Positions 6,813-49,046 of a stretch of 64,000 bases of DNA are shown here, piece after piece (the stretch's first letter is position 1; each line of letters starts with the position of its first letter). This DNA comes from a virus (lineage: Duplodnaviria; Heunggongvirae; Uroviricota; Caudoviricetes). The stretch is from the IMG/VR virus record IMGVR_UViG_3300005399_000003, one strand, 5' to 3'. The notes beneath the pieces are model-generated. The model had not been told where the DNA came from. It did not search any database and worked only from the letters and a program-made list of their open reading frames with translations. The translations under genes were made by a program, and so were the position numbers.

Positions 6813-6992
6813 ATGGCTAGGATCAGGACATCAGACGAGGCGCCCGACTACTTCGACAGCTTGGACGACCTTGCCGATGGCGGGGTCTTTGACCGCATCG
6901 GTGGCGCGCGCAGTGAAGAAGAAGCCCTCTCGGAGCTTTTCGACGACCCGACTTACGGCGGGTCCATGGATGATGAGGACGAAGACGAATGA
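6813..6992 (+). CDS. small highly acidic protein (59 aa)
   Basis: ATG 6813 after AGGAAC. The stop overlaps the next start (ATGA). The C-terminus is the aspartate/glutamate run DDEDEDE. Confidence 0.35.
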   Translation: MARIRTSDEAPDYFDSLDDLADGGVFDRIGGARSEEEALSELFDDPTYGGSMDDEDEDE

Positions 6993-7642
6993 ACAAGCAG
7001 GTCAAACTCACCCCGCAGGGGGAACTTACCGAGCGCGCCAAGGAGGCAGAGTGGTTCGAAACGCCCACTTGGGCCGTCAAAAGCATCCTCAAGAAGGAAC
7101 TGATGACCCTCCACATCGTCGACCCCTGTGCGGGGCGGGGCGTGCTTGGCAAAGCCGCGAAAGAGGCGGACCACTTCGTCCATGAGTATGACCTGAACAA
7201 GTGGCCTGGGCAGCCGCCAAGCGTTCATGCGCCCTTTGACTACCTTGGGCCTATGAATGATGTCAGTCGCACTGTGAAGGGCGCTGTGGGGCCAGCACCG
7301 TTTACTGTACTGATGAACCCGCCATTCACTTTGACCATCGACTTCATCGAGCGCAGCTTCCGTCTTGGCGCGCGTAAGATCGTCATGTTCCAACGCCTTG
7401 CCTTTCTTGAGAGCGCCACCCGTCGAGGCTTCTTCGAGCGCATGATGCCGGCGCGGGTTTGGGTCTGCGGTGATCGTGCGACATGTTGGCGCGGGGACAT
7501 TCCCGAAGAGACCTACACCGACGAGAACGGCGAGGAGATCAGGGGCCGTAAGGGGCGCAGCGCCTCAACACCCCATGCCTGGTTCGTTTGGGAGGCAGGC
7601 CACCGCGGGGCTGGCGTACTCCAGCACCTGTATAAGGACTGA
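6989..7642 (+). CDS. DNA N6-adenine (or N4-C) methyltransferase, orphan
   Basis: Motif I VDPCAGRG is followed by motif IV NPPF. No restriction endonuclease is adjacent. Confidence 0.65.
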   Translation: MNKQVKLTPQGELTERAKEAEWFETPTWAVKSILKKELMTLHIVDPCAGRGVLGKAAKEADHFVHEYDLNKWPGQPPSVHAPFDYLGPMNDVSRTVKGAVGPAPFTVLMNPPFTLTIDFIERSFRLGARKIVMFQRLAFLESATRRGFFERMMPARVWVCGDRATCWRGDIPEETYTDENGEEIRGRKGRSASTPHAWFVWEAGHRGAGVLQHLYKD

Positions 7643-12773: not shown

Positions 12774-13376
12774 ATGATGGCTGATGTGGGTCAGAAGTTC
12801 GGAAAGCTGACGGTGATTCAAAAGCTGCCGAAAGGGGTAAATCTTTGCCGCTGCGAGTGTGGCAGTGAAACGAAGGTTTCCAATACACGACTGCCGAAGT
12901 CGACGGGATGTCGGGAATGTAATCTTGAGCGCCTGCGTAGCGAAAAGTGGAGCGACGATCCGGCATACAAATGCTGGGCCAGTATGAAAACGCGCTGCCT
13001 GAATAGAAACCACAAGCATTACGACAGATACGGCGGGCGCGGAATTAAAGTCTGCGACCGATGGGTCGAGAGCTTCCAAAGCTTTCTTGAGGACATGGGT
13101 GAAAGACCCTCGCCCAATCACACCATTGAGCGGATCAACCACGACGGAGACTACGAACCGTCAAACTGCAAGTGGATGCTGCGACGCTATCAGAACGACA
13201 ACACCTCTCGAACGCGAGACGTTTCGGTGGATGGGATGTCCTTCAAGACGCTCAGCAAGGCGGCGACCCATTTCGGCATCCCCTACAAGACCGTCTACGC
13301 CCGGGTGGCGACGCTCGGTTGGGACATGAAAAAGGCACTGACGACGCCCGTGGCGGGCAGAAAGGAAGTAACATGA
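12774..13376 (+). CDS. HNH homing endonuclease
   Basis: Cys-rich N-terminus, YGGRGIKVC, INHDGDYEPSNCKWM HNH-like motif. Confidence 0.7.
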   Translation: MMADVGQKFGKLTVIQKLPKGVNLCRCECGSETKVSNTRLPKSTGCRECNLERLRSEKWSDDPAYKCWASMKTRCLNRNHKHYDRYGGRGIKVCDRWVESFQSFLEDMGERPSPNHTIERINHDGDYEPSNCKWMLRRYQNDNTSRTRDVSVDGMSFKTLSKAATHFGIPYKTVYARVATLGWDMKKALTTPVAGRKEVT

Positions 13377-14208: not shown

Positions 14209-14709
14209 ATGCTAAAGACACCACCAAAACGAGCAGGGCGCGACCCGATCTTGAACGTGCTGACAAGCCTCAGTCACGGCAAGACCTATGATGGGCTGGA
14301 TGAAGGCTACGCAAGCCTTTCGCACTGGAATCCTGAGTTTGAATACTCCTTCGACAAGTCGTTTGAGCCAATCGACTTCATGAAGCCTGAATACGCTGTC
14401 GAGGGCCGTACATGCGAATGGACGGGCGAGCAGATGTTCCTCAGTGACTACGGGGTGATCGACACCATCGAGCAGTTCGACGAGATGTTCGGCGAAGCGC
14501 TGCGGAATGACGAGCGCACTTTCTTTGTGACATTCGTGGAGATTGCCCGCAAAGATCAACCCGCAAGCGGCGGGTGGCGCTACCACAAGTGGGGTCCATA
14601 CTTCGGCACACAGAACCCGAAGCATGAGTACATCTACCACGATACGCATATCGACCGGGTGTTCACCTTCAGCATTCATCTGATCGAAGCAGAGCAGGTG
14701 ACGGCATGA
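14209..14709 (+). CDS. hypothetical protein
   Basis: ATG 14209 after GAAAGAACAGGAAAAC. Overlaps the RtcB start. Confidence 0.5.
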   Translation: MLKTPPKRAGRDPILNVLTSLSHGKTYDGLDEGYASLSHWNPEFEYSFDKSFEPIDFMKPEYAVEGRTCEWTGEQMFLSDYGVIDTIEQFDEMFGEALRNDERTFFVTFVEIARKDQPASGGWRYHKWGPYFGTQNPKHEYIYHDTHIDRVFTFSIHLIEAEQVTA

Positions 14710-16058
14710 GCGAGATTGAATCCCTCTACAGCGGCAACGACCTCATTCGCTGGGGTCTGAAGCCTGGGGCTTGGTTCAAGGACGCGATCGTCAAGGCGAA
14801 TGCGCTTTGGGATGCGGGCTACTCGGAAGACGAAATCAAGGTGCTCGTCTCGAAAGACGAGCCCACCTTCCTCGAAATGCGAAAGCCCGAGAATGGCTCG
14901 GCGTTCAGTGTCTTCCTTGAGCCTGAGAACGACATTGAGCAGGCTAATCGGGATCAGGTCGTAGAGGCCATGCGCGAAATCATGCGCGTGCCTGTCGTCA
15001 CGGGCGGCGCGGTGATGCCTGACGCTTGCCCTGCCGGCACGATCCCGGTGGGCGGCGTCGTCGAGTCGAGTGCCATTCACCCGAGCTATCACAGCGCCGA
15101 TGTGTGCTGCTCGATGGCGATGACGGTGATTAAGGAAGACGTCGATCAGATGGAGCTGCTGGACAAGATCCAGGAGCTGACCCACTTCGGCCCAACCAAG
15201 CGGGAGACGCGCCCTGTCGAGTTACCGGAAGGGTTCACTGACGGGTGGGGCGATAACATCTTCCTGACGGGTCTCGAAGACGTGGCGCGCAATCACTTCA
15301 CCACGCAGGGTGATGGCAATCACTTCTACTTCGTGGGGCGCTCGGAGGTGACAGGCGATGTGTGCATGGTCTCGCATCACGGCAGCCGCGGCTTCGGGGC
15401 GCAGGTCTACAAGCGCGGTAAGCAGGCTGCCGAAAAGCACACGCGCAACGTGGCGCCAAAAGTGCCTAAGCAACATGCCTGGATTTCGCCCGATGATCAC
15501 GGGCATCTGTATTGGGAAGCGCTGCGCGTTGTGCGTGAATGGACGAAGCTCAACCACTTCATGCTGCATGACGAAATCCTGCGGCAGATGAATGCGACAG
15601 CCGATTGTCAAACGTGGAACCCGCATAACTTCGTCTTTGAGCGGAACGGCATGTTCTATCATGCCAAGGGGGCGACGCCCTCCTTCTTTACTGGCTTCGA
15701 CGACGATGACGGCATGACCTTAATCCCCATGAACATGGCAGAGCCCATTCTGGTCACGTTCCATGAAGACAACCCGCATGCTCTCGGCTTCGCGCCACAT
15801 GGGGCAGGGCGGAACATGAGCCGCACAGCTTTCCTCAAAGAGCATGCGCCCGAGGCTCCTGCTGACATTGACGTGCGGTTCTGGTGCGGGATCGAGGACA
15901 AGAGTGAGCTGCCGCAAGCCTATAAGTCTGCGGCGCAGGTCACGAAAGCGATCAGCGAACACGAGCTAGCCCACATCGTTGACCGCATCATTCCTTATGG
16001 CTCGATCATGGCGGGCGATTGGGAGAGCGAAGCCCCGTGGCGCAAGAAGCGCAAGTAA
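14706..16058 (+). CDS. rtcB: RtcB-family 3'-phosphate/5'-hydroxyl RNA ligase
   Basis: MPDACPAG, GDGNHFYF, HHGSRGFG and PHGAGRNMSRT match RtcB metal- and GTP-binding motifs. Confidence 0.8.
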   Translation: MSEIESLYSGNDLIRWGLKPGAWFKDAIVKANALWDAGYSEDEIKVLVSKDEPTFLEMRKPENGSAFSVFLEPENDIEQANRDQVVEAMREIMRVPVVTGGAVMPDACPAGTIPVGGVVESSAIHPSYHSADVCCSMAMTVIKEDVDQMELLDKIQELTHFGPTKRETRPVELPEGFTDGWGDNIFLTGLEDVARNHFTTQGDGNHFYFVGRSEVTGDVCMVSHHGSRGFGAQVYKRGKQAAEKHTRNVAPKVPKQHAWISPDDHGHLYWEALRVVREWTKLNHFMLHDEILRQMNATADCQTWNPHNFVFERNGMFYHAKGATPSFFTGFDDDDGMTLIPMNMAEPILVTFHEDNPHALGFAPHGAGRNMSRTAFLKEHAPEAPADIDVRFWCGIEDKSELPQAYKSAAQVTKAISEHELAHIVDRIIPYGSIMAGDWESEAPWRKKRK

Positions 16059-25183: not shown

Positions 25184-25690
25184 ATGCCCAATTGGTGCGA
25201 GAACAGATGGACAATCGACGCCCAAACCCCTGAGCGGGTGCAGGAGATTGCCGAAGCGTTGCAGGTCGATGGAAAGTTCAGCTTCAACAGCCTGATCCCG
25301 ATGCCCGAGATCCTCAAGAGAACAGCCTCGGGCAGTATCACGATCGACGGCGAGAACGTGCGCAGCTGGATCACGGAGACGGATGCTGACGGCAAGAGGA
25401 TTGATCGTCTTCCCACCGAAACAGAGAAGGCCCAGCTCAAAGAGATTGGCGCAAGCAACTGGTACGAATGGGCCAATGATAATTGGGGCACCAAGTGGGA
25501 TGCCTGCAATGTTGAAATGCACGTCTTCGGCAGCGGCATCAGCCTCAGCTTCGACACAGCATGGGGGCCGCCCGCGCCTGTCGCTCGCGCTCTCGCTGAC
25601 AAGTTCGACCACATCGACTTCCACCCCCGCTGGGGTGGCGTCGAGATGGAGCTGGATGACGAAGGTGGCTTCATCGACCTCGAATACTGA
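25184..25690 (+). CDS. hypothetical protein (N-terminal MPNWCENRW)
   Basis: GAGAGAAAGGGAGCACTCATG leader. Confidence 0.5.
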   Translation: MPNWCENRWTIDAQTPERVQEIAEALQVDGKFSFNSLIPMPEILKRTASGSITIDGENVRSWITETDADGKRIDRLPTETEKAQLKEIGASNWYEWANDNWGTKWDACNVEMHVFGSGISLSFDTAWGPPAPVARALADKFDHIDFHPRWGGVEMELDDEGGFIDLEY

Positions 25691-29044: not shown

Positions 29045-29390
29045 GAAATCCCCTCACCACAACAGACCCCAAAAATAGCCCCTCAGAAGCCCCAAAACGC
29101 AATCAGCACCCCCAACCCCCGACAGACCCTCCAACGCCCCACAGACCCCCTCACAGCGCAGCGCACGCAACGCCTAACCCCAACAAAGCCCGCGCAACCC
29201 GCAATCAATCCCAACCCCAGAGGAAAACTACCCGCAAGCCCATCAGACCCCGCAGCGCCAAGAACCCTCGGAGCAACGATCAAACCAATCCTGAAACGTA
29301 AGACAAACAGACCTCGAACTTTCGACCCGACAAGAGCACGACCAAGAGCACAGCCACCCTCGGGAACGCCAGTAGGGAAAGGAAAGGGAA
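29045..29390 (+). repeat. C-rich/G-poor low-complexity tract (CCCCAA/ACCC repeats), non-coding
   Basis: About 340 bp with almost no G on the + strand. No ORF with a start codon is present. Confidence 0.6.
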
Positions 29391-29575
29391 AAGCCTATAC
29401 ACACAAGGCTATGATGCTCTCGGATAGGGAAAGGTCAGGGGTGAGACTATAGAGGGATAGAAGGGAGGACATACGGGAAAGGAGACTGATCTGCCTATAG
29501 GGGAAAGGAGGGGTTTTTGCCTATAGACACATGTACGGTAGGGAAAGGAGAGCTTTGTGCCTAGAAACTCTCCCT
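29380..29575 (+). repeat. direct repeats GGGAAAGG...(T)GCCTATAG, 4-5 copies
   Basis: Units at about 29387, 29440, 29500 and 29545. Related units occur at 30700, 31620 and 32300. Confidence 0.55.
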
Positions 29576-29687
29576 ATAAGACGCCGATAAGTGGGCCTGC
29601 GCCTAACCAAACCACCAATCCCAGCCTTGCCACCGCCTGAACTATCCGCGCCACTTCCAAGCCATCGCCAGTCCATCTCGACCATGG

Positions 29688-29750
29688 CCCCACCATGGAC
29701 GTGCCATGGACGTGCCATGGCGTTGGCGTGTTGCCGTGACCATGGCGACA
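29688..29750 (+). promoter_or_regulatory. array of 5 CCATGG palindromes upstream of AGTCA-N4-TGACT element
   Basis: ACCATGGCC, ACCATGGAC, GCCATGGAC, GCCATGGCG and ACCATGGCG within about 65 bp. Confidence 0.5.
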
Positions 29751-29818
29751 AGTCATCGTTGACTGTCCAGCTCTGCGGGGTGATTGTGGGTTTGTTCAAG
29801 CATGAAAGGGAAAGCTCA

Positions 29819-30199
29819 ATGGCAAAGAACACCCCCAAGACGCCCATCACATTCAGTGTGGCAGACATCAGAGCGGTCGTAGACACAGGGATGGCGTATC
29901 GCACAGCGAAGGGCGACCCTGAATTGGCACTTGCCCGCATCAATGGTCTTCAGCGTGAGATCAATGAGATCGTTGGTACATACGAGAACAACGATGGCAG
30001 CGTGAAGCGCAATCATGGACTGTCGCGGGATCAGTTGTTGGAGCGCATTGCGCGTAGCTGCTTTCTGTTGGCAGAGCGCGTCTACATCATGCAGCACTCC
30101 CAAGGTAAGGGCTGTGACATGATTGATCTGCGGCGGGTCGTGAATGACAACTATGACAAGGCAATCAAGCGTGTGGGCTTGGCCCCACAACCCGCTTGA
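29819..30199 (+). CDS. hypothetical protein
   Basis: CATGAAAGGGAAAGCTCAATG leader. Confidence 0.5.
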   Translation: MAKNTPKTPITFSVADIRAVVDTGMAYRTAKGDPELALARINGLQREINEIVGTYENNDGSVKRNHGLSRDQLLERIARSCFLLAERVYIMQHSQGKGCDMIDLRRVVNDNYDKAIKRVGLAPQPA

Positions 30200-30257
30200 T
30201 CTGCCATAACTGCACCCCCACAAAGGGGGTGCAACAACATGAAAGGGATAACAGCTT

Positions 30258-30620
30258 ATGAACGAAGCAGACAAGATCATCCGCAACGCCCACGCAGCAA
30301 GCATTCAGTCCGCAATCGACGACAGCAATGCGCGGGTTATACTGCACAAACAAGAGAGTGCGCCTTTGCATGACAAGCTCCGGGCGCTGTTCACCAACCC
30401 TGATCACGCCGTTGAATATGACGCTGTGTGCAGCGCCTTTGGGCATGAGCCCACGCTGTCTGAGCTGGGTTTCCATCTGTCTTCTATGACGCTGACGCCT
30501 GAAGAAGCCATGCGCGTTGATACGCTGATCGCGGGAATGGCGAGCGATGTCTTCCGTTTCAACTGCTCTGAGGGCGGGGATCAGCCTGAAGACGTGATCG
30601 ACGCCCTATACGGGTTCTGA
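30258..30620 (+). CDS. hypothetical protein
   Basis: Preceded by the hairpin GCACCCCC-ACAAA-GGGGGTGC, then CAAC and GAAAGGGA. Confidence 0.5.
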   Translation: MNEADKIIRNAHAASIQSAIDDSNARVILHKQESAPLHDKLRALFTNPDHAVEYDAVCSAFGHEPTLSELGFHLSSMTLTPEEAMRVDTLIAGMASDVFRFNCSEGGDQPEDVIDALYGF

Positions 30621-30661
30621 CCTAGAACACTGAGAGGGGTTCCTGCTCCCCTCTCAGAACT

Positions 30662-30700
30662 CCCGACCCGAGGTACTTCCCCTTTCAGCCTCGGGTCGGT
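30662..30700 (+). terminator. hairpin terminator-like element
   Basis: CCGACCCGAGG...CCTCGGGTCGG, an 11-bp stem. Confidence 0.4.
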
Positions 30701-30939
30701 CGAGAAAGGCGAGGGAAAGGCGGGGTTTGGGCCTAGATATAGCCATGGAGCTGCCATGGTAATAATCTTGCGCAGTTTTGGCTTGGAGCTTAATCTCACC
30801 CCGGAGGCGATTGATCTCGCCTTCAATGAAATCAAAGGGTTGCTAGGCGAAAGATTATTGCGCGTTGGCAGCTGTTTTGGGGTGATCTGCCGCTATTGAG
30901 GGGTGATAAGGGCTGTAGAGCAACAGAAAGGGATTACCC

Positions 30940-31185
30940 ATGGCATACAAGTTCAAAAGCGAGTGTCTCAAGCTTCAGGCAGAAAGCGTCATCATGGCAG
31001 CTTTTGAGGGCGACAACGAACACGCCATCATCGACACGGGCAGCAACGGGTCGCCCTCCTATCACGTTGTCACCTTCAATCACGGGCGCGAGGGAATGTG
31101 CCTCAACGCAGAAGAGCACAGCAACATGCCTGATGCGATCAAAGCCCTCTCGGGGTTCATGGTGACTGAATACGCGGGAGTTTAA
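30940..31185 (+). CDS. hypothetical protein
   Basis: GAAAGGGATTACCCATGG leader. Confidence 0.5.
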   Translation: MAYKFKSECLKLQAESVIMAAFEGDNEHAIIDTGSNGSPSYHVVTFNHGREGMCLNAEEHSNMPDAIKALSGFMVTEYAGV

Positions 31186-31258
31186 GGTGCCCTTCACCCT
31201 TTGACCCACCTAGTCTGCACCCCCACAACGGGGGTGTAGCAACTGAAAGGGATTACCC

Positions 31259-31606
31259 ATGCAATATGCAGTTATCACAGACGCACAGATCGACTTCCTT
31301 AAAGCGAACCCCGTGCCCAACGTCGATCAGTTTCACACACCCTACGCCTACGTCATCGAAAATCAGCGCGACGATTGCACCTTGAGCAAAGAGCAAGTCA
31401 TCGAACTGACGCAGATGATGCACCTAATGCCCCATGTCGCCCTTGTTGACTACAGTGAGAAACAGGGGCGCGAAACCCGCTATGCTGCCTATTACGACGG
31501 GTCGCTGTCGTTCCTAGAGATCGGGGAAGAAGTCGATGGGCGCTGCACTGTGACTGCCTTGAGCGACAGGGATCACGCCTATGTGCTCGGGTATTTCGGG
31601 CGATAA
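31259..31606 (+). CDS. hypothetical protein
   Basis: Hairpin GCACCCCC-ACAAC-GGGGGTG, then GAAAGGGATTACCCATG. Confidence 0.5.
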   Translation: MQYAVITDAQIDFLKANPVPNVDQFHTPYAYVIENQRDDCTLSKEQVIELTQMMHLMPHVALVDYSEKQGRETRYAAYYDGSLSFLEIGEEVDGRCTVTALSDRDHAYVLGYFGR

Positions 31607-31612
31607 ACCCCG

Positions 31613-31645
31613 AAAGCCCGCCCAAGAGAAAGGCGGGCTTTTTGC
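31613..31645 (+). terminator. rho-independent terminator
   Basis: AAAGCCCGCC-loop-GGCGGGCTTTTT. Confidence 0.6.
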
Positions 31646-31654
31646 CTAGAAGGG

Positions 31655-31795
31655 GTCTTCCATGGCACGGCCATGGCAAAGCTACCATGGCGTTTGCCTA
31701 AACGCGGCCATGGCAGGTCCATGGAGATCAGGCCATGGTCTTCTCCTAAACGCGGCCATGGCGGGTCCATGGCGTTTCGGCCATGGCGCCCCGGG
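31655..31795 (+). promoter_or_regulatory. array of 9 CCATGG palindromes incl. ~40-bp tandem repeat
   Basis: Nine G/TCCATGGC sites within about 135 bp. CTAAACGCGGCCATGGC(A/G)GGTCCATGG is duplicated. Confidence 0.55.
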
Positions 31796-31856
31796 ACTGT
31801 TGCGCTGCCTAACCCTGCGCGGGACATTGGGGCATCAACAGAGAAAGGGATTACCC

Positions 31857-32189
31857 ATGAAGATCGAACTGGAAGTATGTGACTGCTCGGGCGAAGCGAT
31901 TGTTTGCAAGGTGACGCCCACAGACGCGCAGATCGAGAAGATCGAGAAGGCGATAAGCGAGAACCCCTCAAAGATGTTTGAATGGCAAGGCGAGCTGCCC
32001 AATGTCGCTGAGACGACTGTGGAGGGCGTTGACTGCATGTCATTCATGGACGAGGGCATTCTGATCATGTCGATCGCTGGACCCTCGTATATGGACTGTC
32101 TGACGATCTGGGAGGACAAAGAGATGCAAGAGCGCGCAATCGCTGAGACATGGATGCTCTTTGTCCCGCATTTGAAGATCTTCCTCTAA
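31857..32189 (+). CDS. hypothetical protein
   Basis: GAAAGGGATTACCCATG leader. The portion of the tracked ORF upstream of this ATG runs through the CCATGG repeats and is probably non-coding. Confidence 0.5.
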   Translation: MKIELEVCDCSGEAIVCKVTPTDAQIEKIEKAISENPSKMFEWQGELPNVAETTVEGVDCMSFMDEGILIMSIAGPSYMDCLTIWEDKEMQERAIAETWMLFVPHLKIFL

Positions 32190-32335
32190 AGGGAAAGGCG
32201 AGCCCCGCGTCCATATTAGGGAAAGGCTAGCCCCGTGGCGGGCTCTAGGAAAGGCTGCGGGAAAGGCTAGCCCCGTGGCGAGGCTTAGGAAAGGCTCGGA
32301 GAAAGGCGAGCGCTTTGCCTAGGAACGGCGCGGAA
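32190..32335 (+). repeat. direct repeats GGGAAAGGCTAGCCCCGTGGCG(G/A)GC(T)CTAGG x2 plus GGAAAGGC variants
   Basis: Two near-identical units of about 30 bp, each containing an internal hairpin. Confidence 0.55.
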
Positions 32336-32423
32336 AAGGAGAGGAAAGGCAGCAAAAAATGCCGCGGCAAGGCGCGGCAAAGCCCCTGCGGGGCTTGGAG
32401 GAGGCTAGGCGCCCCCTTGATCG

Positions 32424-32803: not shown

Positions 32804-32854
32804 TGGGTAAATCCCTTTCAAGTGTTGCGGGCTGTTTCGCCCGTATCTCTTTCT

Positions 32855-33000
32855 AAGTCATCTTTGACTTGATTCGCAATATCCCTTTCCCATTAAATCG
32901 CCCCCTTTTCCCCTTTCCCCATATAAAGGGATTAAATCGCCCCCTTTTCATAAAAGCGCATTTTAGGGGTTGCGAATCAAGTCACCCCTGACTTATACAT
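32855..33000. promoter_or_regulatory. composite regulatory region: two AGTCA-N4-TGACT elements embedded in a 15-bp inverted repeat flanking 2x direct repeat ATTAAATCGCCCCCTTTTC
   Basis: The TTGACTTGATTCGCAA...TTGCGAATCAAGTCA arms enclose the direct repeats. Confidence 0.5.
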
Positions 33001-33058
33001 ATTTCACGGGCAACGAAGCGCCCCGCAAGAAAGCGCTTCACATGAAAGGGAAAGACCC

Positions 33059-33742
33059 ATGACAAACGTTTCTATCAAAGCAATGCGCGAAAATCTGACA
33101 GCTAACTTTGCAGCGCGTGAAGAGTTTGAAGCGAAAAAGGGCAAAGCTGCTAGCATCATGCCCCAGCTTGATCGTCATTTCGCGTATGACAATAAAGCGC
33201 AAGATTCCAAATGGGGTAACGATGTATTCAAAGCCCTGCGCGATGCGGGTGTCTCTAACTTTGACTTCATCACGCACAAGCTGCGCGAGTCTGATATGTT
33301 CAATATCAAGGGGCTTGCGAAAGTAGGGGCGCACATTGAAAGCATCGCGCGGGGCAAGCTCACCCAATTTGACAAGACGAATCAGAAGTATTGCGGGGCG
33401 ATTGTGCATGAGCTGATTCAGAATCGTGACAAGTTCGAGCGGGGCGAAATGCAAATCAAAACAGGGCAATTTGTACCCATGTTCGCCCGCGCAGCACGCA
33501 ACGACTCGCTTGCGACATATGATTTCGCAACATCGCTAATCAGCGTTCAACCCAGCACTGCTAGCACGCAAGCAAGCTCTAGCATGCGCGCCCTAGATGC
33601 AATGGGGGTAGTGAACGCATACGAAACAGGGACAGGGAAAGACAAGACATTGCATGTAAACTATGTGAAATGGGATCACCCCCTTGTCGCTTTGTTCGCT
33701 GAGCTTTACGGGCTAGACGTTCCCAAAACTGAGCAAGCTTAA
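33059..33742 (+). CDS. hypothetical protein (lower-GC, likely horizontally acquired moron)
   Basis: Local GC is about 48%, against roughly 60% for the window. The gene carries the same GAAAGGGAAAGACCCATG leader. Confidence 0.55.
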   Translation: MTNVSIKAMRENLTANFAAREEFEAKKGKAASIMPQLDRHFAYDNKAQDSKWGNDVFKALRDAGVSNFDFITHKLRESDMFNIKGLAKVGAHIESIARGKLTQFDKTNQKYCGAIVHELIQNRDKFERGEMQIKTGQFVPMFARAARNDSLATYDFATSLISVQPSTASTQASSSMRALDAMGVVNAYETGTGKDKTLHVNYVKWDHPLVALFAELYGLDVPKTEQA

Positions 33743-33744
33743 AC

Positions 33745-33832
33745 TGCCCCGCTAGCGCCCCTCTGAGGGGCGTTAGCATCCCCGCAAGGGGGTCGGGTAG
33801 GGAATGACATTAGCGCCCCTCAGAGGGGCTTA
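33745..33832. terminator. convergent-transcription terminator hairpins
   Basis: GCTAGCGCCCCTC-TGA-GAGGGGCGTTAGC and TTAGCGCCCCTCAGAGGGGCT, between + strand and - strand gene blocks. Confidence 0.45.
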
Positions 33833-34048
33833 TATTGGGCGAATCACACGCGGGCGTTGCAAGAAGCCCTAGATTCGCTGTCAAGCCCTATGGACCGTCA
33901 CCTTCCTCTTTGCGGCGGGTTTTTCGGCCGCTCCTTATACAGCCGCGGACGGGGTGCAGACCGCTCCTTATACAGCCGTCCAAGGGTCCGATTGTCCGCT
34001 GGTCAAGGGTCCGTGGGTCGATTGGTCGCTGGTCGCCAGCGTCTTCGA

Positions 34049-34273
34049 TCAGTGGTCGCCATCGAAGAATTGCTCAAGGTTGATGGGAAACCAGCCGTCA
34101 GCGACGGAGCCCGCGAGGCAGGCTGTCGCCTCCCACGGGTCGTCCGTGCGCTGACCGTCTTCGTCGAACCAGATGGAGCAGTCGATCTCTTTACCGTCGC
34201 TGCGCAGGGCGATCTGCTCCGACGTGTTGATGGCGACGATCTTCAAAGGCTCTTGTGCGACAGGCAGGGGCAT
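34049..34273 (-). CDS. hypothetical protein
   Basis: ORF at the end of the minus-strand block. Confidence 0.4.
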   Translation of the reverse strand: MPLPVAQEPLKIVAINTSEQIALRSDGKEIDCSIWFDEDGQRTDDPWEATACLAGSVADGWFPINLEQFFDGDH

Positions 34274-40373: not shown

Positions 40374-41030
40374 ATGAACCTCATCCATACAGATCCCCGC
40401 ACATTAAGCCCAAATCCCTGGAACCCGAACCATGTCTCCCCGGAAGGTATGGAGCGTCTCACCGAAAGTCTTCGGCGCCACGGCTGGGTAAAGCCCGCGC
40501 TTGTGCGTGAGACAGACACGGGCCTTGAAATCCTCGGCGGTCAACATCGCATCGAAGCCTCGATCGTCCTGGGCAATGAGACAGTCCCGGTTCTCAATCT
40601 CGGTCGCTTGAGTGACGAGCGCGCCAAGGAGATCGGTCTGATCGACAACGCCCGTTACGGTAGCGATGACGCGGATGAACTGGCGGCCATCATCAAAGAC
40701 CTTGGCGGCAGCGAGATCATCTCGGAGTTTCTACCCTTCTCTGATGCCGAACTGGCCTCCCTCGCGACCGACATTGATGTGGATGACATCGACGACATGA
40801 TCGACGGCACCCACGACAGCACCGGTGAGCCGGAAGAGAAGCCCGAGCGGCCGCCCAAGACCCACACCATCATGCGCTTCAAGATCTCCATTCAAGACGA
40901 AGACCTGGTGCGGGAGCTGATCGAGGAGATCAAACGAGATCAGGAGTTCGTCGAGGAAGACGATCTCACCAATGCCGGGGATGCCCTGGTCTATCTTGCT
41001 CAACAAATGAAGGAAGCCGAACATGGCTAA
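40374..41030 (+). CDS. ParB/Srx-like nuclease-domain protein
   Basis: LEILGGQHR ParB N-domain motif and an acidic C-terminus. Confidence 0.7.
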   Translation: MNLIHTDPRTLSPNPWNPNHVSPEGMERLTESLRRHGWVKPALVRETDTGLEILGGQHRIEASIVLGNETVPVLNLGRLSDERAKEIGLIDNARYGSDDADELAAIIKDLGGSEIISEFLPFSDAELASLATDIDVDDIDDMIDGTHDSTGEPEEKPERPPKTHTIMRFKISIQDEDLVRELIEEIKRDQEFVEEDDLTNAGDALVYLAQQMKEAEHG

Positions 41031-41703
41031 AGAGATCGACATCAACGACCTCTCCATTGAGGCAGTCGACATCGACTACCCCAAACCAGCGGAGAACAAC
41101 AACAAGGTTCACACGCCCGCATCTGTCGCGCGTCAGGCTAAGTCCCTCGCGGCCCTCGGGCAGATCACCCCGATCATCCTGGCTGAAGACGGCGAGATCA
41201 TCGCCGGACACGGTCGGGTCATGGCTGCCAAAGAGCTTGGCTGGAAGAAGATCAAGGCCATCACGCTGCCTGTTGACGCCGAGACGGCGCGCAAGATGCG
41301 CATTGCTGACAACCTCGCATCGAACCAAAACTACGACATCGACGCACTGACCAACGAGCTGAAGGACTTGAACCTTCGCGACGAGCTGGAAAACTTCATC
41401 GGCGACGATCGGATGATCGACAATCTGGAAACCGCGCTCGACACGCTGGCGGAGATGGATCGCGACAGCTTCGTCAAAGACCTCGATGAAGCCGTGGATG
41501 TCTACGCCTCGGAATCCGACGGCTTGATGGATGAAATCGACCAGAAGGATGTGATGCTCAAGACTGTCTTTGAGTTCAATGGCCTCAAACCCAAGGAGGC
41601 GCGGCGGGTCAATCTGTTCATGGCGCTGATCAAGGGCAAGAGCGGCGCGGAGGCAAAAGAAGCCTTCCTTGAGCATGTGGAGAAGACCATTGCCGAAGGA
41701 TGA
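41023..41703 (+). CDS. ParB/Srx-like nuclease-domain protein (second copy)
   Basis: IIAGHGRVMAAKELGW motif. Confidence 0.7.
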   Translation: MAKEIDINDLSIEAVDIDYPKPAENNNKVHTPASVARQAKSLAALGQITPIILAEDGEIIAGHGRVMAAKELGWKKIKAITLPVDAETARKMRIADNLASNQNYDIDALTNELKDLNLRDELENFIGDDRMIDNLETALDTLAEMDRDSFVKDLDEAVDVYASESDGLMDEIDQKDVMLKTVFEFNGLKPKEARRVNLFMALIKGKSGAEAKEAFLEHVEKTIAEG

Positions 41704-42938: not shown

Positions 42939-43802
42939 ATGCCTGAAGACTTTGCCACCGAGATCGTCTGCGACCCGCAGGCCAAACCTGCATTCCCGCT
43001 GTTGTCGGAGATGTACGTCGAGCGCGGCACGCAGGAAGATTGGAACCTGCTGCACCATCTGCACTACAAGTCCGACCACAACCCTATCGGCGCGCGCTAC
43101 TATCGCCTTGTGTTGGACGGTGAGACAATCGGCGTCTGCGGGATCACCCAGCCCCGGCCCTTGGGCAAGGAGCGTCATCAGATTTGGAAGAAGCTCACGC
43201 CGGGGAATGACACCAAGGCCTCGAACCGCTTTCGGTACAAGTGGGTCAACAAGAACATCGTGGTGATCGGCCGCATTGTGCTGGACACGATGTACCGCGG
43301 CGTGGGCGCCTCGTATCGCTTTCAGAACATTGTTGCCCGCAAGTCTGGCATGCCGATTGTCGAGATCATGTCCTCGATGTCGAAGTACAATCCCTTCGCG
43401 CAGAAGGCGGGGTTTGAGTTCGTGCGCCCCATGCGGTCGAACAAGTTCGATGTCGGCATGAAGTTCTTCCGGGCCAACTTCGATGCGCACCCCGCCGATC
43501 TCGATGGACTGCTCAAAGAGATCGACGCAATGCCTGAGGCCGCCCGGGGCTTGATGGTCGATCGTATCAAGACGTTCTACTACCGCCACTCCGCCAACGA
43601 GAAGACGGGTGACGCCCGCGACATCGGGCAGGAGCGGGTGCGTAACATGAGCACGAGCCTTGTCTTGCGTCAGTTGCAGCAGCTGGTGCTCTCAACGCCG
43701 CTTTACGGGGTCTACATGAACCCGGACTTCGGGCGCGATCTTCCCGATCAAATCCCACTCACCGCTTTTGATGCTCAACCGACGACGGAGCCGCTGAAAT
43801 GA
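42939..43802 (+). CDS. GNAT-like acetyltransferase-fold protein with C-terminal extension
   Basis: AAGGGAG RBS. GRIVLDTMYRGVGASYRF is motif-A-like. Confidence 0.45.
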   Translation: MPEDFATEIVCDPQAKPAFPLLSEMYVERGTQEDWNLLHHLHYKSDHNPIGARYYRLVLDGETIGVCGITQPRPLGKERHQIWKKLTPGNDTKASNRFRYKWVNKNIVVIGRIVLDTMYRGVGASYRFQNIVARKSGMPIVEIMSSMSKYNPFAQKAGFEFVRPMRSNKFDVGMKFFRANFDAHPADLDGLLKEIDAMPEAARGLMVDRIKTFYYRHSANEKTGDARDIGQERVRNMSTSLVLRQLQQLVLSTPLYGVYMNPDFGRDLPDQIPLTAFDAQPTTEPLK

Positions 43803-44492: not shown

Positions 44493-45107
44493 ATGGCAGG
44501 CGAGAAATCTGAACCCCACCATCGGAAGATGACGCCCTTGGATTACGCCAAGGCGCGGCGCTTGTATGAAATGGGCACGGCGACCCTCGCGGAGCTTGCC
44601 GAGCAGTTCGGGGTTCACCCCTCGTCGCTGCACGAACGCTTCAAGCGCGACGGTGTGGTCAAGGGCTCTCGGGTGTCCGAGGCGCTTGAGAAGATGGACG
44701 AGGTCATCGCCAACGACGCTGAACAGCTGATGAAGCGCGTCACGGACACCAAAGAACAACACTACCGCTACGCCGAGGCGCTCTCGAAGATGACCATGCA
44801 GGCCATTATTGACACGCGCCAGAAGGGCAAACCCATCGCCGCCGCGGATGGTGATCTCGCTGCGCTCAACAAGGCCGCCAAGACGCTCGAAGTGCTGCGC
44901 AAGGAGCGCTACAAGCTTTTGGGCCTCGATGACGATGGCGGCGATCCCAACGAGAATGAAGAAATCCTGATCTCCGAAATGACGGATGAGCAGATCGACG
45001 AACTGCGCCAAGCCGCCAACCCGAATGTCGATAACTCCGAGGGCATCGAGACCCTCTTGGAGGACATCGACATCGTTGATGAGGGGCTGGAGGGCCTTGA
45101 GCAGTGA
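44493..45107 (+). CDS. terminase small subunit (putative)
   Basis: HTH LAELAEQFGVHPSSLHERFKR, immediately upstream of TerL. Confidence 0.55.
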   Translation: MAGEKSEPHHRKMTPLDYAKARRLYEMGTATLAELAEQFGVHPSSLHERFKRDGVVKGSRVSEALEKMDEVIANDAEQLMKRVTDTKEQHYRYAEALSKMTMQAIIDTRQKGKPIAAADGDLAALNKAAKTLEVLRKERYKLLGLDDDGGDPNENEEILISEMTDEQIDELRQAANPNVDNSEGIETLLEDIDIVDEGLEGLEQ

Positions 45108-46384
45108 AGCCGCCCGTCAACATGATGCGCGGGCCGAAGGGCGGCAAGCCGCGATGGCTGTACCTGCACCCCGCGCAGATGAAGGTGTTCAAGCACCCGA
45201 CGCGCTTTAAGGTCGTCGTCGCAGGCCGTCGATGGGGTAAGACCCAGCTGTCAAAAGTCTGGATGATCCACAAGGCAGCCTCGAAGCGCAAGGCGTTGAT
45301 CTGGTACATCGCGCCGACCTATCAGATGGCGCGTCAGATTATGTGGGACGACCTCAAAGAGGCGATCCCGCGAAAGATGCTCAAGGTGCCGCCCAACGAG
45401 ACCTTGATGATGCTCCGCTTCAAGAACGGGTCGATCATCCAGCTCAAGGGTGCCGACAAGCCCGACACGCTGCGCGGTGTGGGCCTTGATGGCGTGGTTC
45501 TCGACGAATTTCAGGACATGCGCGAGGAGACCTGGGATACGGTCATTCAGCCCACACTTGCCTCGACAGGCGGTGAGGCGCTGTTTATCGGCACGCCGAA
45601 GTCTTACAACCACCTCTATGATCTGTTCATGGACGGTCAGAGCGCCAAGCATGAAGATTGGCAGTCCTGGCAGTTCCAGACCATCACGTCTCCGTTCATC
45701 CCGCCCGCAGAGATCGAGCGTGCGCGGCGCACGATGAACGAAAAGGAGTTCCGGCAGGAGTTTGAAGCTTCCTTCGAGACGATGTCGAACCGCGTCTACC
45801 ACGCCTTCGACCGCAACGTGCATGTGGGCCGGGTCAAAATGGACCCGCGCTACGACATTATGGTTGGGATGGACTTCAACGTGGACCCGATGTCCGCGAT
45901 CTTCTTTCAGATCCGAGACGGCTCGGTGCGCGTTTTCGGCGAGCGCATTCTCAGCAACTCTTCGACGCAAGAGATGTCCGGGGAGCTTGATCGTCTGTTC
46001 TGGCGCCAGAAGCACCGCGTGATCATCTACCCTGACCCTGCCGGCACGCAGCGATCCTCGGCCGCCTCCAGCGGTGAGAGTGACTTTGCCATGCTCAAGC
46101 AGATGGGTTTCAAGCGTCTCAAGTATCGCCGCAAGCACCCGCGCATCCGTGACCGTATCAACGCGGTCAATCGCATGCTCATGGCAGGTGACGGCACGTC
46201 TCGGGTTCTGATCGACCACACCTGCAAGAGTTTGATCGAGAGCTTTGAGCAGACGCAGTTCAAGCCGGGATCATCCGAAGTCGACAAGCGCCCCGGTATC
46301 GAACACGCGACGGACGCTTTCGGCTATCCCATCGAGATCGAGTTCCCGGTACGCGACATTCATATCCTGGGGGTTTCCTTCTGA
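45104..46384 (+). CDS. terminase large subunit
   Basis: Walker A VVVAGRRWGKT, Walker B VVLDEF, and a C-terminal nuclease region. Confidence 0.8.
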   Translation: MKPPVNMMRGPKGGKPRWLYLHPAQMKVFKHPTRFKVVVAGRRWGKTQLSKVWMIHKAASKRKALIWYIAPTYQMARQIMWDDLKEAIPRKMLKVPPNETLMMLRFKNGSIIQLKGADKPDTLRGVGLDGVVLDEFQDMREETWDTVIQPTLASTGGEALFIGTPKSYNHLYDLFMDGQSAKHEDWQSWQFQTITSPFIPPAEIERARRTMNEKEFRQEFEASFETMSNRVYHAFDRNVHVGRVKMDPRYDIMVGMDFNVDPMSAIFFQIRDGSVRVFGERILSNSSTQEMSGELDRLFWRQKHRVIIYPDPAGTQRSSAASSGESDFAMLKQMGFKRLKYRRKHPRIRDRINAVNRMLMAGDGTSRVLIDHTCKSLIESFEQTQFKPGSSEVDKRPGIEHATDAFGYPIEIEFPVRDIHILGVSF

Positions 46385-46437: not shown

Positions 46438-48096
46438 ATGCCAAAAGACACGTCCACAGATACAGTCGACCCCTCCTTCTTCGAGCGGCGCCACCCCGAT
46501 TACTCGGGGAAGTTGGCGCATTGGAACTTCCTGGAGGCAACCTACTACGGTGGGCGGGATTGGTTCAAAAAGAACGTCCACAAGTATTTCCGCGAAGGGT
46601 CGGGGGAGTACAGCGATCGGATCGAGCGGGCTTATCGCTTCAACCATACGCGCGAGATCGTCGATCTGGTGACGAAGTATGTCTACAAGGGCGACATCAT
46701 TCGGAAGTCTGATGCGCCCAAGTTCATTGATGACTTCTGGAAGAAGACGACCAAAGGCGGCCGGGACATCGACGCTTTCATGCGGCAGGTCTCGCAGATG
46801 ACCTCTGTTTTCGGTCAGCCCTATATCGTCATGGACAGCACCATCACGCTCAAAGAGGGCGAGAAGCTGAGCCAAGCAGAGGTCGAACGCCGGGGCGGTC
46901 GGGTCTATGCCTATCTGGTCAAACCCCAAGATGCGCTCGACATGTCCTTTGATGCACATGGCGAGCTGAACTGGATCATCTTTAGCGAAGTCAGCCGCCA
47001 GGACACGGACTTCTTTTCCGCGCAAAAGACCGTCACCCGCTATCGTCTCTGGACCCGCAAGAGCTGGTATCTGTTTGAGATTGAGCAGGGTGAAGCGAAG
47101 ACAGATGGCAAGCCCGCGATCAAGGTCGTCACGCCCGATGTAACGCCCATGGTCACCCCCTCGGGCGCGGCCAATGTCAACAAGAACACGAGCAAGCTCA
47201 AGGTTGTGTTGAAGGGCAGGGGTGATCACAATCTCGGAGAAGTGCCTGTCATCGTTCCGCGTGAGCGTCATTCGGACACGAGCTATTCGGCCCCGGGCTT
47301 GATCGACGATACCGCCTATCTCGACCGCGCTGTCGCGAACTATCTGTCGAACCTCGATGCAATCATTCAGGATCAGACCTTCTCGACACTGGTGATCCCG
47401 TCGCAGGCGCTGAACTCTGCGGATTCCGGTGAGAGCGTCAAGAAGAAGGTGATCGAGCTGGGCACCAATCGCGTCGTCACCTACGACGCCGAGGCAGGCA
47501 TTGCGCCGCAGTATATCTCACCTGACCCCGGTCAGGTCGCAATCATTCTCGGGGTGATCACCAAGATCATCACCGAAATCTATCACTCTGTCGGCATGGC
47601 CGGCGAGCGCACGAAGAGCGACAATGCCGCGGGCATCGACAACAGCTCGGGCGTGGCGAAGGCATATGACTTCGACCGCATGAACACCATGCTCAAGTCC
47701 AAAGCTGACACGCTGCAAACTGTCGAGAACGACATGGTGCGGCTTGCGCATCTGTGGTTCGGACAGAAGCCCCCGGAAGACCGTGACTTCGTGCGCTACC
47801 CTGATGATTTTGACACGCGCAATCTCTACGACGAGTTTGACGTTGCCAATCGACTGGCTCTGCTCGATGCGCCCGACGGCGTGCGACAGCACCAGATGAT
47901 GACCTTGATCGAGAAGCTCTTCCCGAACCTGACCGACGAGCTGAAATCGGAAATCGAGAAGCAGATCGAGGACTGGCCGCCAGAAGAGGCGGTATCGATC
48001 CGAGCGCCCTCAAGGCTACAGGATCGAAACGTACCCCAAGAAGAGAACAGGCAAGGCCAGGCTGGCGGCGCCGACAACCCCAAGGACGAAGGATGA
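46438..48096 (+). CDS. portal protein
   Basis: Size and position after TerL. AAGAGG RBS. Confidence 0.6.
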   Translation: MPKDTSTDTVDPSFFERRHPDYSGKLAHWNFLEATYYGGRDWFKKNVHKYFREGSGEYSDRIERAYRFNHTREIVDLVTKYVYKGDIIRKSDAPKFIDDFWKKTTKGGRDIDAFMRQVSQMTSVFGQPYIVMDSTITLKEGEKLSQAEVERRGGRVYAYLVKPQDALDMSFDAHGELNWIIFSEVSRQDTDFFSAQKTVTRYRLWTRKSWYLFEIEQGEAKTDGKPAIKVVTPDVTPMVTPSGAANVNKNTSKLKVVLKGRGDHNLGEVPVIVPRERHSDTSYSAPGLIDDTAYLDRAVANYLSNLDAIIQDQTFSTLVIPSQALNSADSGESVKKKVIELGTNRVVTYDAEAGIAPQYISPDPGQVAIILGVITKIITEIYHSVGMAGERTKSDNAAGIDNSSGVAKAYDFDRMNTMLKSKADTLQTVENDMVRLAHLWFGQKPPEDRDFVRYPDDFDTRNLYDEFDVANRLALLDAPDGVRQHQMMTLIEKLFPNLTDELKSEIEKQIEDWPPEEAVSIRAPSRLQDRNVPQEENRQGQAGGADNPKDEG

Positions 48097-49046
48097 ACAT
48101 GAAAAACCGCCTTACCCAACCGACTGACCCTTACGATACACCTGCGTGGATGGCGTTCTACGCAGCGAACCCCGGCTTCCGCCGCTCTGTGGGCGCTGAG
48201 GGCGTCAATGACGACGATCCAGCCCCGGGCGCTGACGATGACCCCCAAGACCCGCCCAAGGGCGACGACAAGACGCCCCAAGACCCTCCCAAGGGCGACG
48301 ACGACCCGAAAGACCCGCCCAAGGGCGACGACAAAGACAAGAAGCCCTCGGACGAAGAGGCGCGTTTGCTGCAAGACCTGATGAAGCACAAGAAGGCCGC
48401 GCGTGAAGCGCAGGCCAAGCTGAAGGACTATGACGGCGTCGATGTCGAAGAATACAAGCGGCTCAAGCAGGCGTCGGCTGACGCGGCTCAGGCTGAGCTT
48501 GAGGCTAAGGGCCAGTTTGACGAAGTGAAGCGTCAGATGCGCGAGGCGCATGATCAAGAGATCACGACCATTCGCGCGGAGTCGGAAGAGAAAGACAAGA
48601 CCATCGCCGAGCTGAAGGCGCAGATCGAAGAGCTGACCGTCGGCTCCAGCTTCGGCTCGTCGAAGTTCCTCAAGGAAGAGACCCTGCTGCCGCCCTCGAA
48701 GGCGCGTCGTCTCTATGGTGAGCACTTCGAGATCGAAGACGGCAAGGTCGTGGCCTATGACAAGCCCAAGGGCGCTGCCAACCGCTCGCCGCTGGTTGAC
48801 GGTCGTGGCGACCCGCTGCCTTTCGAGGATGCGATTTCGAAGATCTTCAAGGCTGATCCCGACAGCAAGGAGATGCTGCGCAGCGCCCTGCGCCCCGGCT
48901 CCGACAGCGATCCGTCGAATGCCAAGTCCGACCCGGCCAAGGATCAAAAGCCGATGTCGCGGCAGGAGAAGATCGCCAGTGGCCTCTCCAGCCTCTTCGA
49001 GGGCGGCAATCAAGAGCCGTTCAGCGAGATGTTCAATACGAAGTGA
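48093..49046 (+). CDS. scaffolding protein (putative)
   Basis: PKGDD repeats and a coiled-coil K/E-rich region, directly upstream of the capsid gene. Confidence 0.5.
   Translation: MNMKNRLTQPTDPYDTPAWMAFYAANPGFRRSVGAEGVNDDDPAPGADDDPQDPPKGDDKTPQDPPKGDDDPKDPPKGDDKDKKPSDEEARLLQDLMKHKKAAREAQAKLKDYDGVDVEEYKRLKQASADAAQAELEAKGQFDEVKRQMREAHDQEITTIRAESEEKDKTIAELKAQIEELTVGSSFGSSKFLKEETLLPPSKARRLYGEHFEIEDGKVVAYDKPKGAANRSPLVDGRGDPLPFEDAISKIFKADPDSKEMLRSALRPGSDSDPSNAKSDPAKDQKPMSRQEKIASGLSSLFEGGNQEPFSEMFNTK

Follow-up and report, generated by a model that had tools for sequence, protein, structure and literature searches.

Intergenic arrays of a 6-bp palindrome in a phage-plasmid are probable protein-binding sites with a winged-helix protein as candidate binder

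Introduction

The omega system of the Inc18 plasmid pSM19035 with its heptads, ParR/parC of R1 and pSK41, and ParG of TP228 use many very short motifs that follow each other in steps of 7–11 bp. The arrays of these systems front several promoters, and the small dimer that binds them cooperatively is at once a repressor of transcription and a mark for plasmid partition. The KorB operators of IncP-1 plasmids and the SopB centromeres of the phage-plasmid N15 represent one type of palindromic site that is placed before many operons and ties maintenance to global gene control. In the phage-plasmid P1, pac contains clusters of the palindromic hexamer TGATCA/G, which carry Dam sites and are recognised by a phage protein.

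Here we describe arrays of the palindrome CCATGG in a 64-kb stretch of viral DNA, which is referred to as the window throughout. Unlike the sites of P1 pac, which form one locus within pacA with 4 + 3 hexamers around the cut site, the three arrays of the window (up to four in relatives) are intergenic and lie 13–15 kb from the terminase gene (45104-46384). An analogy to the injection stop of T5 was considered and rejected: a preprint on T5 describes inverted repeats, paired DnaA boxes and a long untranslated terminal-repeat stretch, whereas the arrays described here separate cassettes. No DnaA boxes were seen on reading the sequence. A literature search for CCATGG or CCTAGG arrays in phages yielded nothing relevant, and no description of this system was found. 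Based on this search, the binder family, the 6-bp palindromic site, and the lineage-specific resetting of its central dinucleotide with purging of the alternative site appear not to have been described yet.

Results

The window belongs to a group of phage-plasmids

The terminase and the helicase encoded in the window are similar to their counterparts in Pseudomonas phage nickie, Rhizobium phage RHEph10, Stenotrophomonas phages, and Salmonella phage SSU5, and helicase matches extend to more than 1000 plasmids of Klebsiella, Escherichia, Acinetobacter, Aeromonas, and Methylobacterium. These two proteins place the window in the SSU5/Acinetobacter 'AB'/RHEph10/nickie group of phage-plasmids, while the original prediction, made from the sequence of the window, had treated the element as an ordinary phage. 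SSU5 and AB are described groups of phage-plasmids (PMC7969092), and the RHEph10 relative pLM21S1 has been described as a plasmid-like prophage (PMC5537653). Marine metagenomes are the source of the window's nearest relatives; a nucleotide search of phage records with the window gave no match. A pattern scan for 11- and 14-bp spacing identified the viral contig L001, which is syntenic with the window. Another 80 loci were fetched via the helicase; the helicase alone matched none, and an alignment with that of L001 was used.

Some further features of these genomes were observed. The helicase gene of L085 (8339-10882) encodes 847 aa with an intein (Hom_end_hint and LAGLIDADG matches). L095 (contig Ga0189291_100040) has a size of 235 kb, about twice the 100–117 kb that is usual for the group, and may be a concatemer, a cointegrate, or a larger element. 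In the window, an HNH endonuclease gene (12774-13376) adjoins the DNA polymerase exonuclease gene, and a tandem repeat of 30–33 bp (48234-48334) is located inside the ORF 48093-49046, 3' of a portal-like gene. A Pfam scan of 20 further ORFs of the window returned nothing.

CCATGG sites are packed into three intergenic arrays

The window contains 28 exact matches to CCATGG, compared to 21.2 ± 4.1 in dinucleotide shuffles, and 16 of the 28 are packed into three clusters within 2.1 kb. The largest cluster, array 3 (31660-31786, no strand assigned), consists of nine sites (starting at 31660, 31671, 31685, 31708, 31719, 31733, 31756, 31767, and 31781) in three units of 48 bp, with gaps of 11, 14, and 23 bp repeated. 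At the window-wide rate, about 0.056 sites are expected per 127 bp, and by hand arithmetic the Poisson probability of nine is about 1e-17. Array 1 (29682-29745, no strand assigned) comprises five sites (29682, 29693, 29704, 29715, and 29740) with gaps of 11, 11, 11, and 25 bp, and array 2 (30743-30759, likewise unstranded) two sites 11 bp apart (30743 and 30754). The conserved part is the hexamer only; its flanks are loosely G/C (GCCATGGC or TCCATGG). All three arrays are intergenic and located 5' of small genes on the plus strand. An exact search thus bore out the non-coding array of nine copies at 31660-31786 that had been predicted, and the G or T at the site flanks and the position upstream of cassette genes had also been described correctly. 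The predicted five-copy array and pair both exist, at coordinates that differ by a few bases from those given earlier. The tandem unit had been put at about 40 bp; it measures 48 bp by TRF (period 48, 2.4 copies, 79% matches), and a repeat search agrees.

At each array of the window, a hairpin with a T run lies on the 5' side and overlaps a copy of a 27-nt repeat, GGGAAAGG-N10-GCCTAKA, which occurs nine times between 29374 and 32324. The intrinsic-terminator-like hairpin before array 3, read from the sequence (31616-31643, plus strand; GCCCGCC-N9-GGCGGGC followed by TTTTT), closes the preceding cassette and overlaps the repeat copy at 31625-31651. It was not called by a consensus terminator scan, probably because its 9-nt loop exceeds the limit of 3–8 nt set in that scan. 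On the 3' side, a -35-like hexamer occurs 8–13 bp past the last site and is followed by a 17-nt spacer and a weak -10-like hexamer. At array 3 this promoter-like element (31800-31828, plus strand; TTGCGC-17 nt-GACATT) starts 13 bp past the last site and is conserved in the relative L088 (87% identity). The equivalents at array 1 (29759-29787, TTGACT-17-GATTGT) and array 2 (30768-30796, TTGCGC-17-TAATCT) were read from the sequence. A short leader and the start region usual for the element, GAAAGGGA...ATG, follow 3' of these elements. A consensus scan detected no canonical sigma-70 site at the predicted array promoters; from the sequence layout we infer that promoters exist downstream of the arrays.

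The arrays precede three cassettes on the plus strand. Cassette A (29819-30620) and cassette B (30940-31606) each consist of two small genes (29819-30199 and 30258-30620; 30940-31185 and 31259-31606), the second gene of cassette B being absent from L088. Cassette C (31857-32189) is a 110-aa gene directly 3' of array 3 that is kept in L085, L088, and L095. No homologs of the cassette A genes were detectable in the relatives' loci, and the cassette proteins gave neither PHROG matches nor homologs in these loci. In cassettes A and B alike, the two genes are separated by a conserved stem-loop without T run, CTGCACCCCCACAAnGGGGGTGCA (30210-30238 and 31215-31243), which may serve to stabilise or process the RNA. 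A second repeat family, GGAAAGG(C), occurs on the plus strand only, with 14 of the 16 window copies located in 29374-32350. Part of the copies coincide with the 27-nt unit, one per cassette boundary, and a dense block of direct repeats (32190-32350, plus strand, 94% conserved in L088) occupies the region 3' of the gene at 31857, in the same place as in L085 and L095. These repeats could be sites of a second protein, or iterons.

The arrays are conserved in position and turn over rapidly

In many of about 85 related loci, CCATGG or CCTAGG ranked first among clustered hexamers. In these loci the clusters always occur downstream of the helicase gene and never upstream, on the ParB/terminase side, and position and motif are kept in relatives with helicases that are just 43–60% identical. 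The cultured Rhizobium phage RHEph10 carries small intergenic CCATGG clusters, and in pAMS5a, a circular plasmid of Methylobacterium sp. AMS5, all clustered sites (16/16) fall into gaps of the PGAP annotation. The order of terminator, array, promoter-like element, and gene is shared by the window, L085, L095, L038, L040, and pAMS5a; L040 has TGTTATAAT there, which would make a strong promoter. Within arrays, CCATGG and CCTAGG reach densities of 16 and 11 per kb, respectively, compared to 0.23 and 0.12 per kb outside, and the hybrid CCAAGG is barely enriched. AGCGCT and TCGCGA clusters found in some relatives were considered as further motif types and rejected, as the AGCGCT cluster of L036 is a coding repeat. 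This 21-bp tandem repeat (14637-14782, 6.5 copies) is located within a winged-helix gene and encodes a peptide repeat of 7 residues.

Most genomes carry one of the two palindromes alone; L050 and L085 are mixed. The CCTAGG-type loci (L011, L013, L017, L020, L030, L031, L035-L037, L040, L043, L045, L070, and L074) contain 2 CCATGG in 246 kb where 57 are expected, and CCATGG-type genomes contain 10 CCTAGG versus 33 expected. Such depletion of the other palindrome resembles restriction avoidance linked to the motif that the arrays use. The motif type switches within the helicase tree, in which the CCATGG users L015, L025, and L050 are nested among CCTAGG users.

Copy number varies among relatives, as the original prediction had proposed to check. 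Upstream of the orthologous gene, the counterpart of array 3 has 4 sites in L085 and 7 in L095, though the homologs of the protein encoded at 33059 are only 42–45% identical there. Array 3 of L088 has no CCATGG sites left and carries (C/T)AGGC-type repeats in their place, while the place of array 2 is occupied by CCATGG plus CCTTGG. The genes of L088 are 65–84% identical to those of the window (84% for the gene of the 33059 protein), its promoter regions 87–94%, its GGAAAGGC block 94%, and the divergent region before 33059 93%; array 3 is 57% identical, with many gaps. The loss in L088, set against the retention in L085 and L095, indicates that individual arrays are quickly gained, lost, and resized while the system persists.

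Site spacing points to protein docking

The spacing of the sites was determined on a pool of 66 arrays with 218 gaps and compared to random placement (1000 trials). None of the 218 gaps was shorter than 10 bp (simulation mean 32.8, minimum 20), and 46 fell into the peak at 10–11 bp (simulation mean 14.7, maximum 28). One-mismatch variants of the site (CCACGG or CCGTGG) had a compensating partner nearby in 0 of 24 cases. Taken together, the spacing rule and the uncompensated variants argue for docking of a protein rather than for hairpins, and the 10–11 bp spacing agrees with a footprint that spans about one turn of the helix and places neighbouring units on the same face of the DNA. Judged from these sequence patterns, the arrays are very likely protein-binding sites. 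The operator-, iteron-, or centromere-like sites of the original prediction thus gain support from the site-like conservation, the 10-bp minimum, and the position between terminator and promoter; the ParB-like pair that it had suggested as binders does not.

In the lineage of the window, the arrays end 0–13 bp before -35-like hexamers. The sites abut or precede the -35 element and do not cover the core promoter, a placement more typical of activators than of repressors. A role of the arrays in transcription is probable, and repression in the plasmid state seems more likely where promoters are strong, as would be the case in L040. The position between terminator and promoter is by itself weak evidence for such a role, since any intergenic element in the cassette block would sit in this way.

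A winged-helix family is the best candidate for the array binder

The strongest candidate binder is the product of the gene at 33059-33742 (plus strand, 227 aa), a member of an uncharacterised, fast-evolving winged-helix family which had been overlooked when binders were first proposed. The predicted structure (pLDDT 79, pTM 0.79) has a C-terminal winged helix and a helical N-terminal half without domain match. No sequence match to the family was found in Pfam, NCBIfam, PHROG, or PDB, and a Foldseek search of the model against PDB returned nothing significant. The label 'Rep-like' was weakened by a better model, which generic winged helices match at least as well as RepA does. Species genomes searched with the subfamily of the window gave nothing. 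Homologs of the protein include gp142 of RHEph10 and WP_060772512 of pAMS5a. The recognition helix comprises approximately residues 165-181 (TASTQASSSMRALDAMG), precedes a beta-hairpin wing, and carries the residues T167, T170, Q171, and S173 that are invariant in the family.

In most loci, a gene of this family adjoins the arrays. Arrays occur in 19 of the 30 loci that have the family and in 1 of the 8 that lack it (Fisher p = 0.016, with phylogeny ignored); in eleven loci the family is present and an array is absent by threshold. At least two sites are present within 800 bp upstream of 39 of 60 family genes. Fifteen copies on the helicase strand are devoid of upstream sites, with the exception of that of L051 (two sites). 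Upstream of the window gene no CCATGG occurs within 800 bp, the nearest array being 1.27 kb away. Many relatives possess two paralogs (for example L046 15675-16292, L065 15624-16298, and L092 22203-22817). The second copy of the metagenomic loci lies on the helicase strand without upstream sites; the two pAMS5a copies share the cassette strand, and each has upstream sites.

The recognition helix co-varies with the motif type. After the invariant TQxS, 15 of 16 CCTAGG-type proteins carry R-x-M versus 0 of 22 CCATGG-type proteins, which have M-x-A, I-x-A, L-x-A, R-x-L, K-x-V, and similar combinations at this place. Helix-plus-wing identity amounts to 68% in same-motif pairs and 44% in different-motif pairs (35–50% elsewhere in the protein), pair counts being non-independent and the signal spanning perhaps three or four independent switches. 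That motif switches occur inside the helicase tree shows that the co-variation does not go back to one single split. The signal appears only when the alignment is anchored on TQxS, and a column-wise separation scan of the family did not rank the recognition-helix positions first. Exceptions are L037, a CCTAGG type with R-x-A, and L018, which has R-x-M without arrays; in L088 the recognition helix is unchanged although the CCATGG sites of array 3 were lost. Linkage and helix co-variation are suggestive, and on these comparisons we favour, with modest confidence, the winged-helix family as the array binder.

The regions on both sides of the window gene contain further repeats. The divergent region before it (32804-33058), 93% conserved in L088, has a 26-nt inverted repeat (32854-32879 / 32970-32995) that encloses two 19-nt direct repeats (ATTAAATCGCCCCCTTTTC), and may be an operator or an origin. 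The convergent region after it (33743-34050) contains two direct repeats CCGCTCCTTATACAGCCG and a near-perfect palindrome (33754-33830), probably a bidirectional terminator, to which Rfam gave a chance match (mir-9242).

Alternative functions of the arrays

The arrays might bind a protein, possibly the winged-helix protein itself, for maintenance, as centromere-like sites or as iteron-like sites for initiation or handcuffing. The group consists of phage-plasmids, RHEph10 and pAMS5a have a ParA gene a few kb away, and the steps of 10–12 bp known from ParR/parC and TubR/tubC count toward such a role. Fold matches of the winged-helix protein include RepA WH1, RepE, ORC/Cdc6, and TubR, and in pAMS5a arrays occur on both sides of the winged-helix gene, adjoining a long inverted repeat with an A+T-rich centre. 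The sites are, however, unoriented 6-bp palindromes and not direct repeats of 17–22 bp, and a genome has three to five separate arrays with unrelated cassettes between them. With the better model of the winged-helix protein, generic winged helices match as well as or better than RepA, and no Rep family was found by sequence. No ParA was found on scanning window proteins, among them the products of all genes from the arrays to the terminase, and the repeats at 32854-32995 and 33900-34040, which are nearer to the winged-helix gene, would suit an origin better. We regard a function in maintenance, the main rival of a transcriptional role, as rather unlikely. The inverted repeat of pAMS5a (L092, approximately 25230-25320) is located about 250 bp upstream of the winged-helix gene, is flanked by CCATGG, and looks origin-like.

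Binding by the two overlapping ParB_N-domain genes' products (40374-41703, plus strand; 40374-41030 and 41023-41703), in the manner of KorB or ParB on dispersed sites, is improbable. Their ParB-like identity, as predicted, was supported by ParB_N matches (E 8e-10 and 8.5e-6, the second just below the Pfam cut-off). Both proteins have a GxxRxxA-like motif within the ParB_N domain, the pair is conserved and syntenic in relatives, and the C-terminus of the first (THTIMRFKV, then helices) could by our own reading be a ribbon-helix-helix. Yet the pair does not co-vary with the motif and occurs in nearly every relative, including the array-less SSU5, in which 19 kb contain zero CCATGG or CCTAGG, and ANB28, also without arrays. 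The C-termini are essentially the same in the nested CCATGG-type L015, L025, and L050 and in their CCTAGG-type neighbours, no HTH was detected in either protein, and a distance of 8.6 kb separates the genes from the nearest array. Nor is the motif tracked by the winged-helix protein at 43799 or by the small-terminase-like protein at 44493; column-wise co-variation scans of ParB1, ParB2, the helicase, the ABC-type ATPase, and these two proteins gave clade-level signals only.

It is very unlikely that the palindromes act by structure, as hairpins in RNA or single-stranded DNA or as cruciforms that serve as insulators, processing sites, or stabilisers. The folding energy of array 3 (-74.5 kcal/mol) is lower than that of shuffled sequences (z = -3.5), but good folding is expected of any set of palindromes. 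The 10-bp minimum spacing is also compatible with a hairpin loop of at least 4 nt. Hairpins, however, would tolerate any inverted repeat, yet the same hexamer is kept across genomes, and no compensation was seen at any of the 24 variant sites. Moreover, odd numbers of sites and irregular gaps of 14–60 bp are common among the arrays, which are placed 3' of terminators and 5' of promoters. An Rfam search gave chance matches only and no family match.

CCATGG and CCTAGG are the NcoI and AvrII sites, both classic type II sites. That the arrays are restriction or methylation targets, functioning as methylation-sensitive switches written by the DNA methyltransferase encoded in the window, would agree with this and with the near absence of CCATGG from CCTAGG-type genomes (2 versus 57 expected), which resembles restriction avoidance. 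Avoidance accounts for absence but not for dense clustering, and neither a 10-bp minimum spacing nor a fixed place in the genome would be expected of enzyme targets. The gene at 6989-7642 does encode a small DNA methyltransferase (phrog_799, E 5e-28; DPCAGRG and NPPF motifs), as had been predicted, and by its NPPF motif the enzyme is of the N6-adenine type. Tested small NPPF/Y/W enzymes of alphaproteobacterial phages recognise GANTC (PMC5537653), which argues against such switches; we consider them highly improbable, and CCATGG is an unlikely target of this enzyme. The methyltransferase resembles these small GANTC-specific phage enzymes of alphaproteobacteria.

Finally, the ORF 31662-32189 spans array 3 and shares the reading frame of the gene at 31857, and the length of the 48-bp unit is divisible by three, but an N-terminal repeat extension of this gene is next to impossible and was judged spurious because the array 3 sites occupy all three frames, the gene has the usual GAAAGGGATTACCC-ATG start region, the close relative L088 keeps the gene start while array 3 is replaced with indels, and arrays 1 and 2 and those of the relatives, including PGAP-annotated pAMS5a, are intergenic, so that the repeats did not turn out to be coding in related genomes.

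Discussion

We propose that the element itself encodes a sequence-specific DNA-binding protein for which the CCATGG clusters are arrays of sites. One protein unit, covering about one helical turn, would occupy each 6-bp palindrome, and units 10–11 bp apart would share a face of the DNA and probably bind cooperatively. In the winged-helix protein, the invariant Thr, Gln, and Ser of the recognition helix would read the constant CC/GG, and the central AT would be read by two positions of the helix that vary, occupied in the window by Met176 and Ala178. The protein would co-control the whole block of accessory cassettes and, with arrays before the binder's own gene in most relatives, would also regulate itself. 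The cassette promoters may be silenced while the element is a plasmid prophage, towards which we lean; activation is also possible. That the arrays are the sites through which the winged-helix protein at 33059-33742 controls the accessory cassettes together with its own gene is, on the sequence comparisons made here, a tentative proposal that could well be correct.

A further step would be that the winged-helix protein and the arrays form an undescribed one-protein control system that silences the hypervariable cassettes and marks the replicon, as omega or KorB do, with a specificity that has been reset repeatedly by two helix residues. We consider this broader interpretation unlikely at present. 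The near absence of CCATGG from CCTAGG genomes (2 versus 57 expected) suggests that host restriction may have driven the change of motif. If the interpretation were true, the specificity type would define immunity or incompatibility groups among co-resident phage-plasmids, in a group that comprises more than 1000 phage-plasmids in sequenced isolates. Phage-plasmids carry resistance genes according to published work. The arrays provide a testable handle, with a 6-bp site, a candidate binder with no known relatives, and a two-residue prediction of specificity, and two cultured systems are available, namely RHEph10 with its host Rhizobium etli and pAMS5a in Methylobacterium. That some lineages have lost the alternative palindrome almost entirely would represent a natural case of a rewritten regulatory code, possibly under restriction pressure.

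Among the described systems, the iterons bound by RepA/RepE initiators differ in being oriented repeats of 17–22 bp in steps of about 22 bp, in place of the 6-bp palindrome found here, and no Rep_3-like sequence match was found for the winged-helix protein. The KorB and SopB sites are single palindromes of 13–16 bp recognised by a true ParB, unlike the 6-bp palindromes in arrays of 2–9 described here, where the ParB-like pair does not track the sites. With TubR/tubC and OmpR/PhoB the locus shares the winged-helix fold predicted for the candidate binder. The sites of these systems are direct repeats of 7–12 bp and not palindromes, and neither a receiver domain, nor a TubZ partner, nor sequence similarity was found here. 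The arrays of omega, ParR, and ParG have ribbon-helix-helix binders, a family of which no member occurred among the proteins scanned in this analysis, and motifs that are mostly direct or mixed-orientation repeats; here, a perfect 6-bp palindrome is combined with a winged-helix candidate of about 230 aa without an adjacent motor gene. Like those arrays, the ones of the window group are located near promoter-like elements and follow a short regular step, with a minimum gap of 10 bp and a mode of 10–11 bp.
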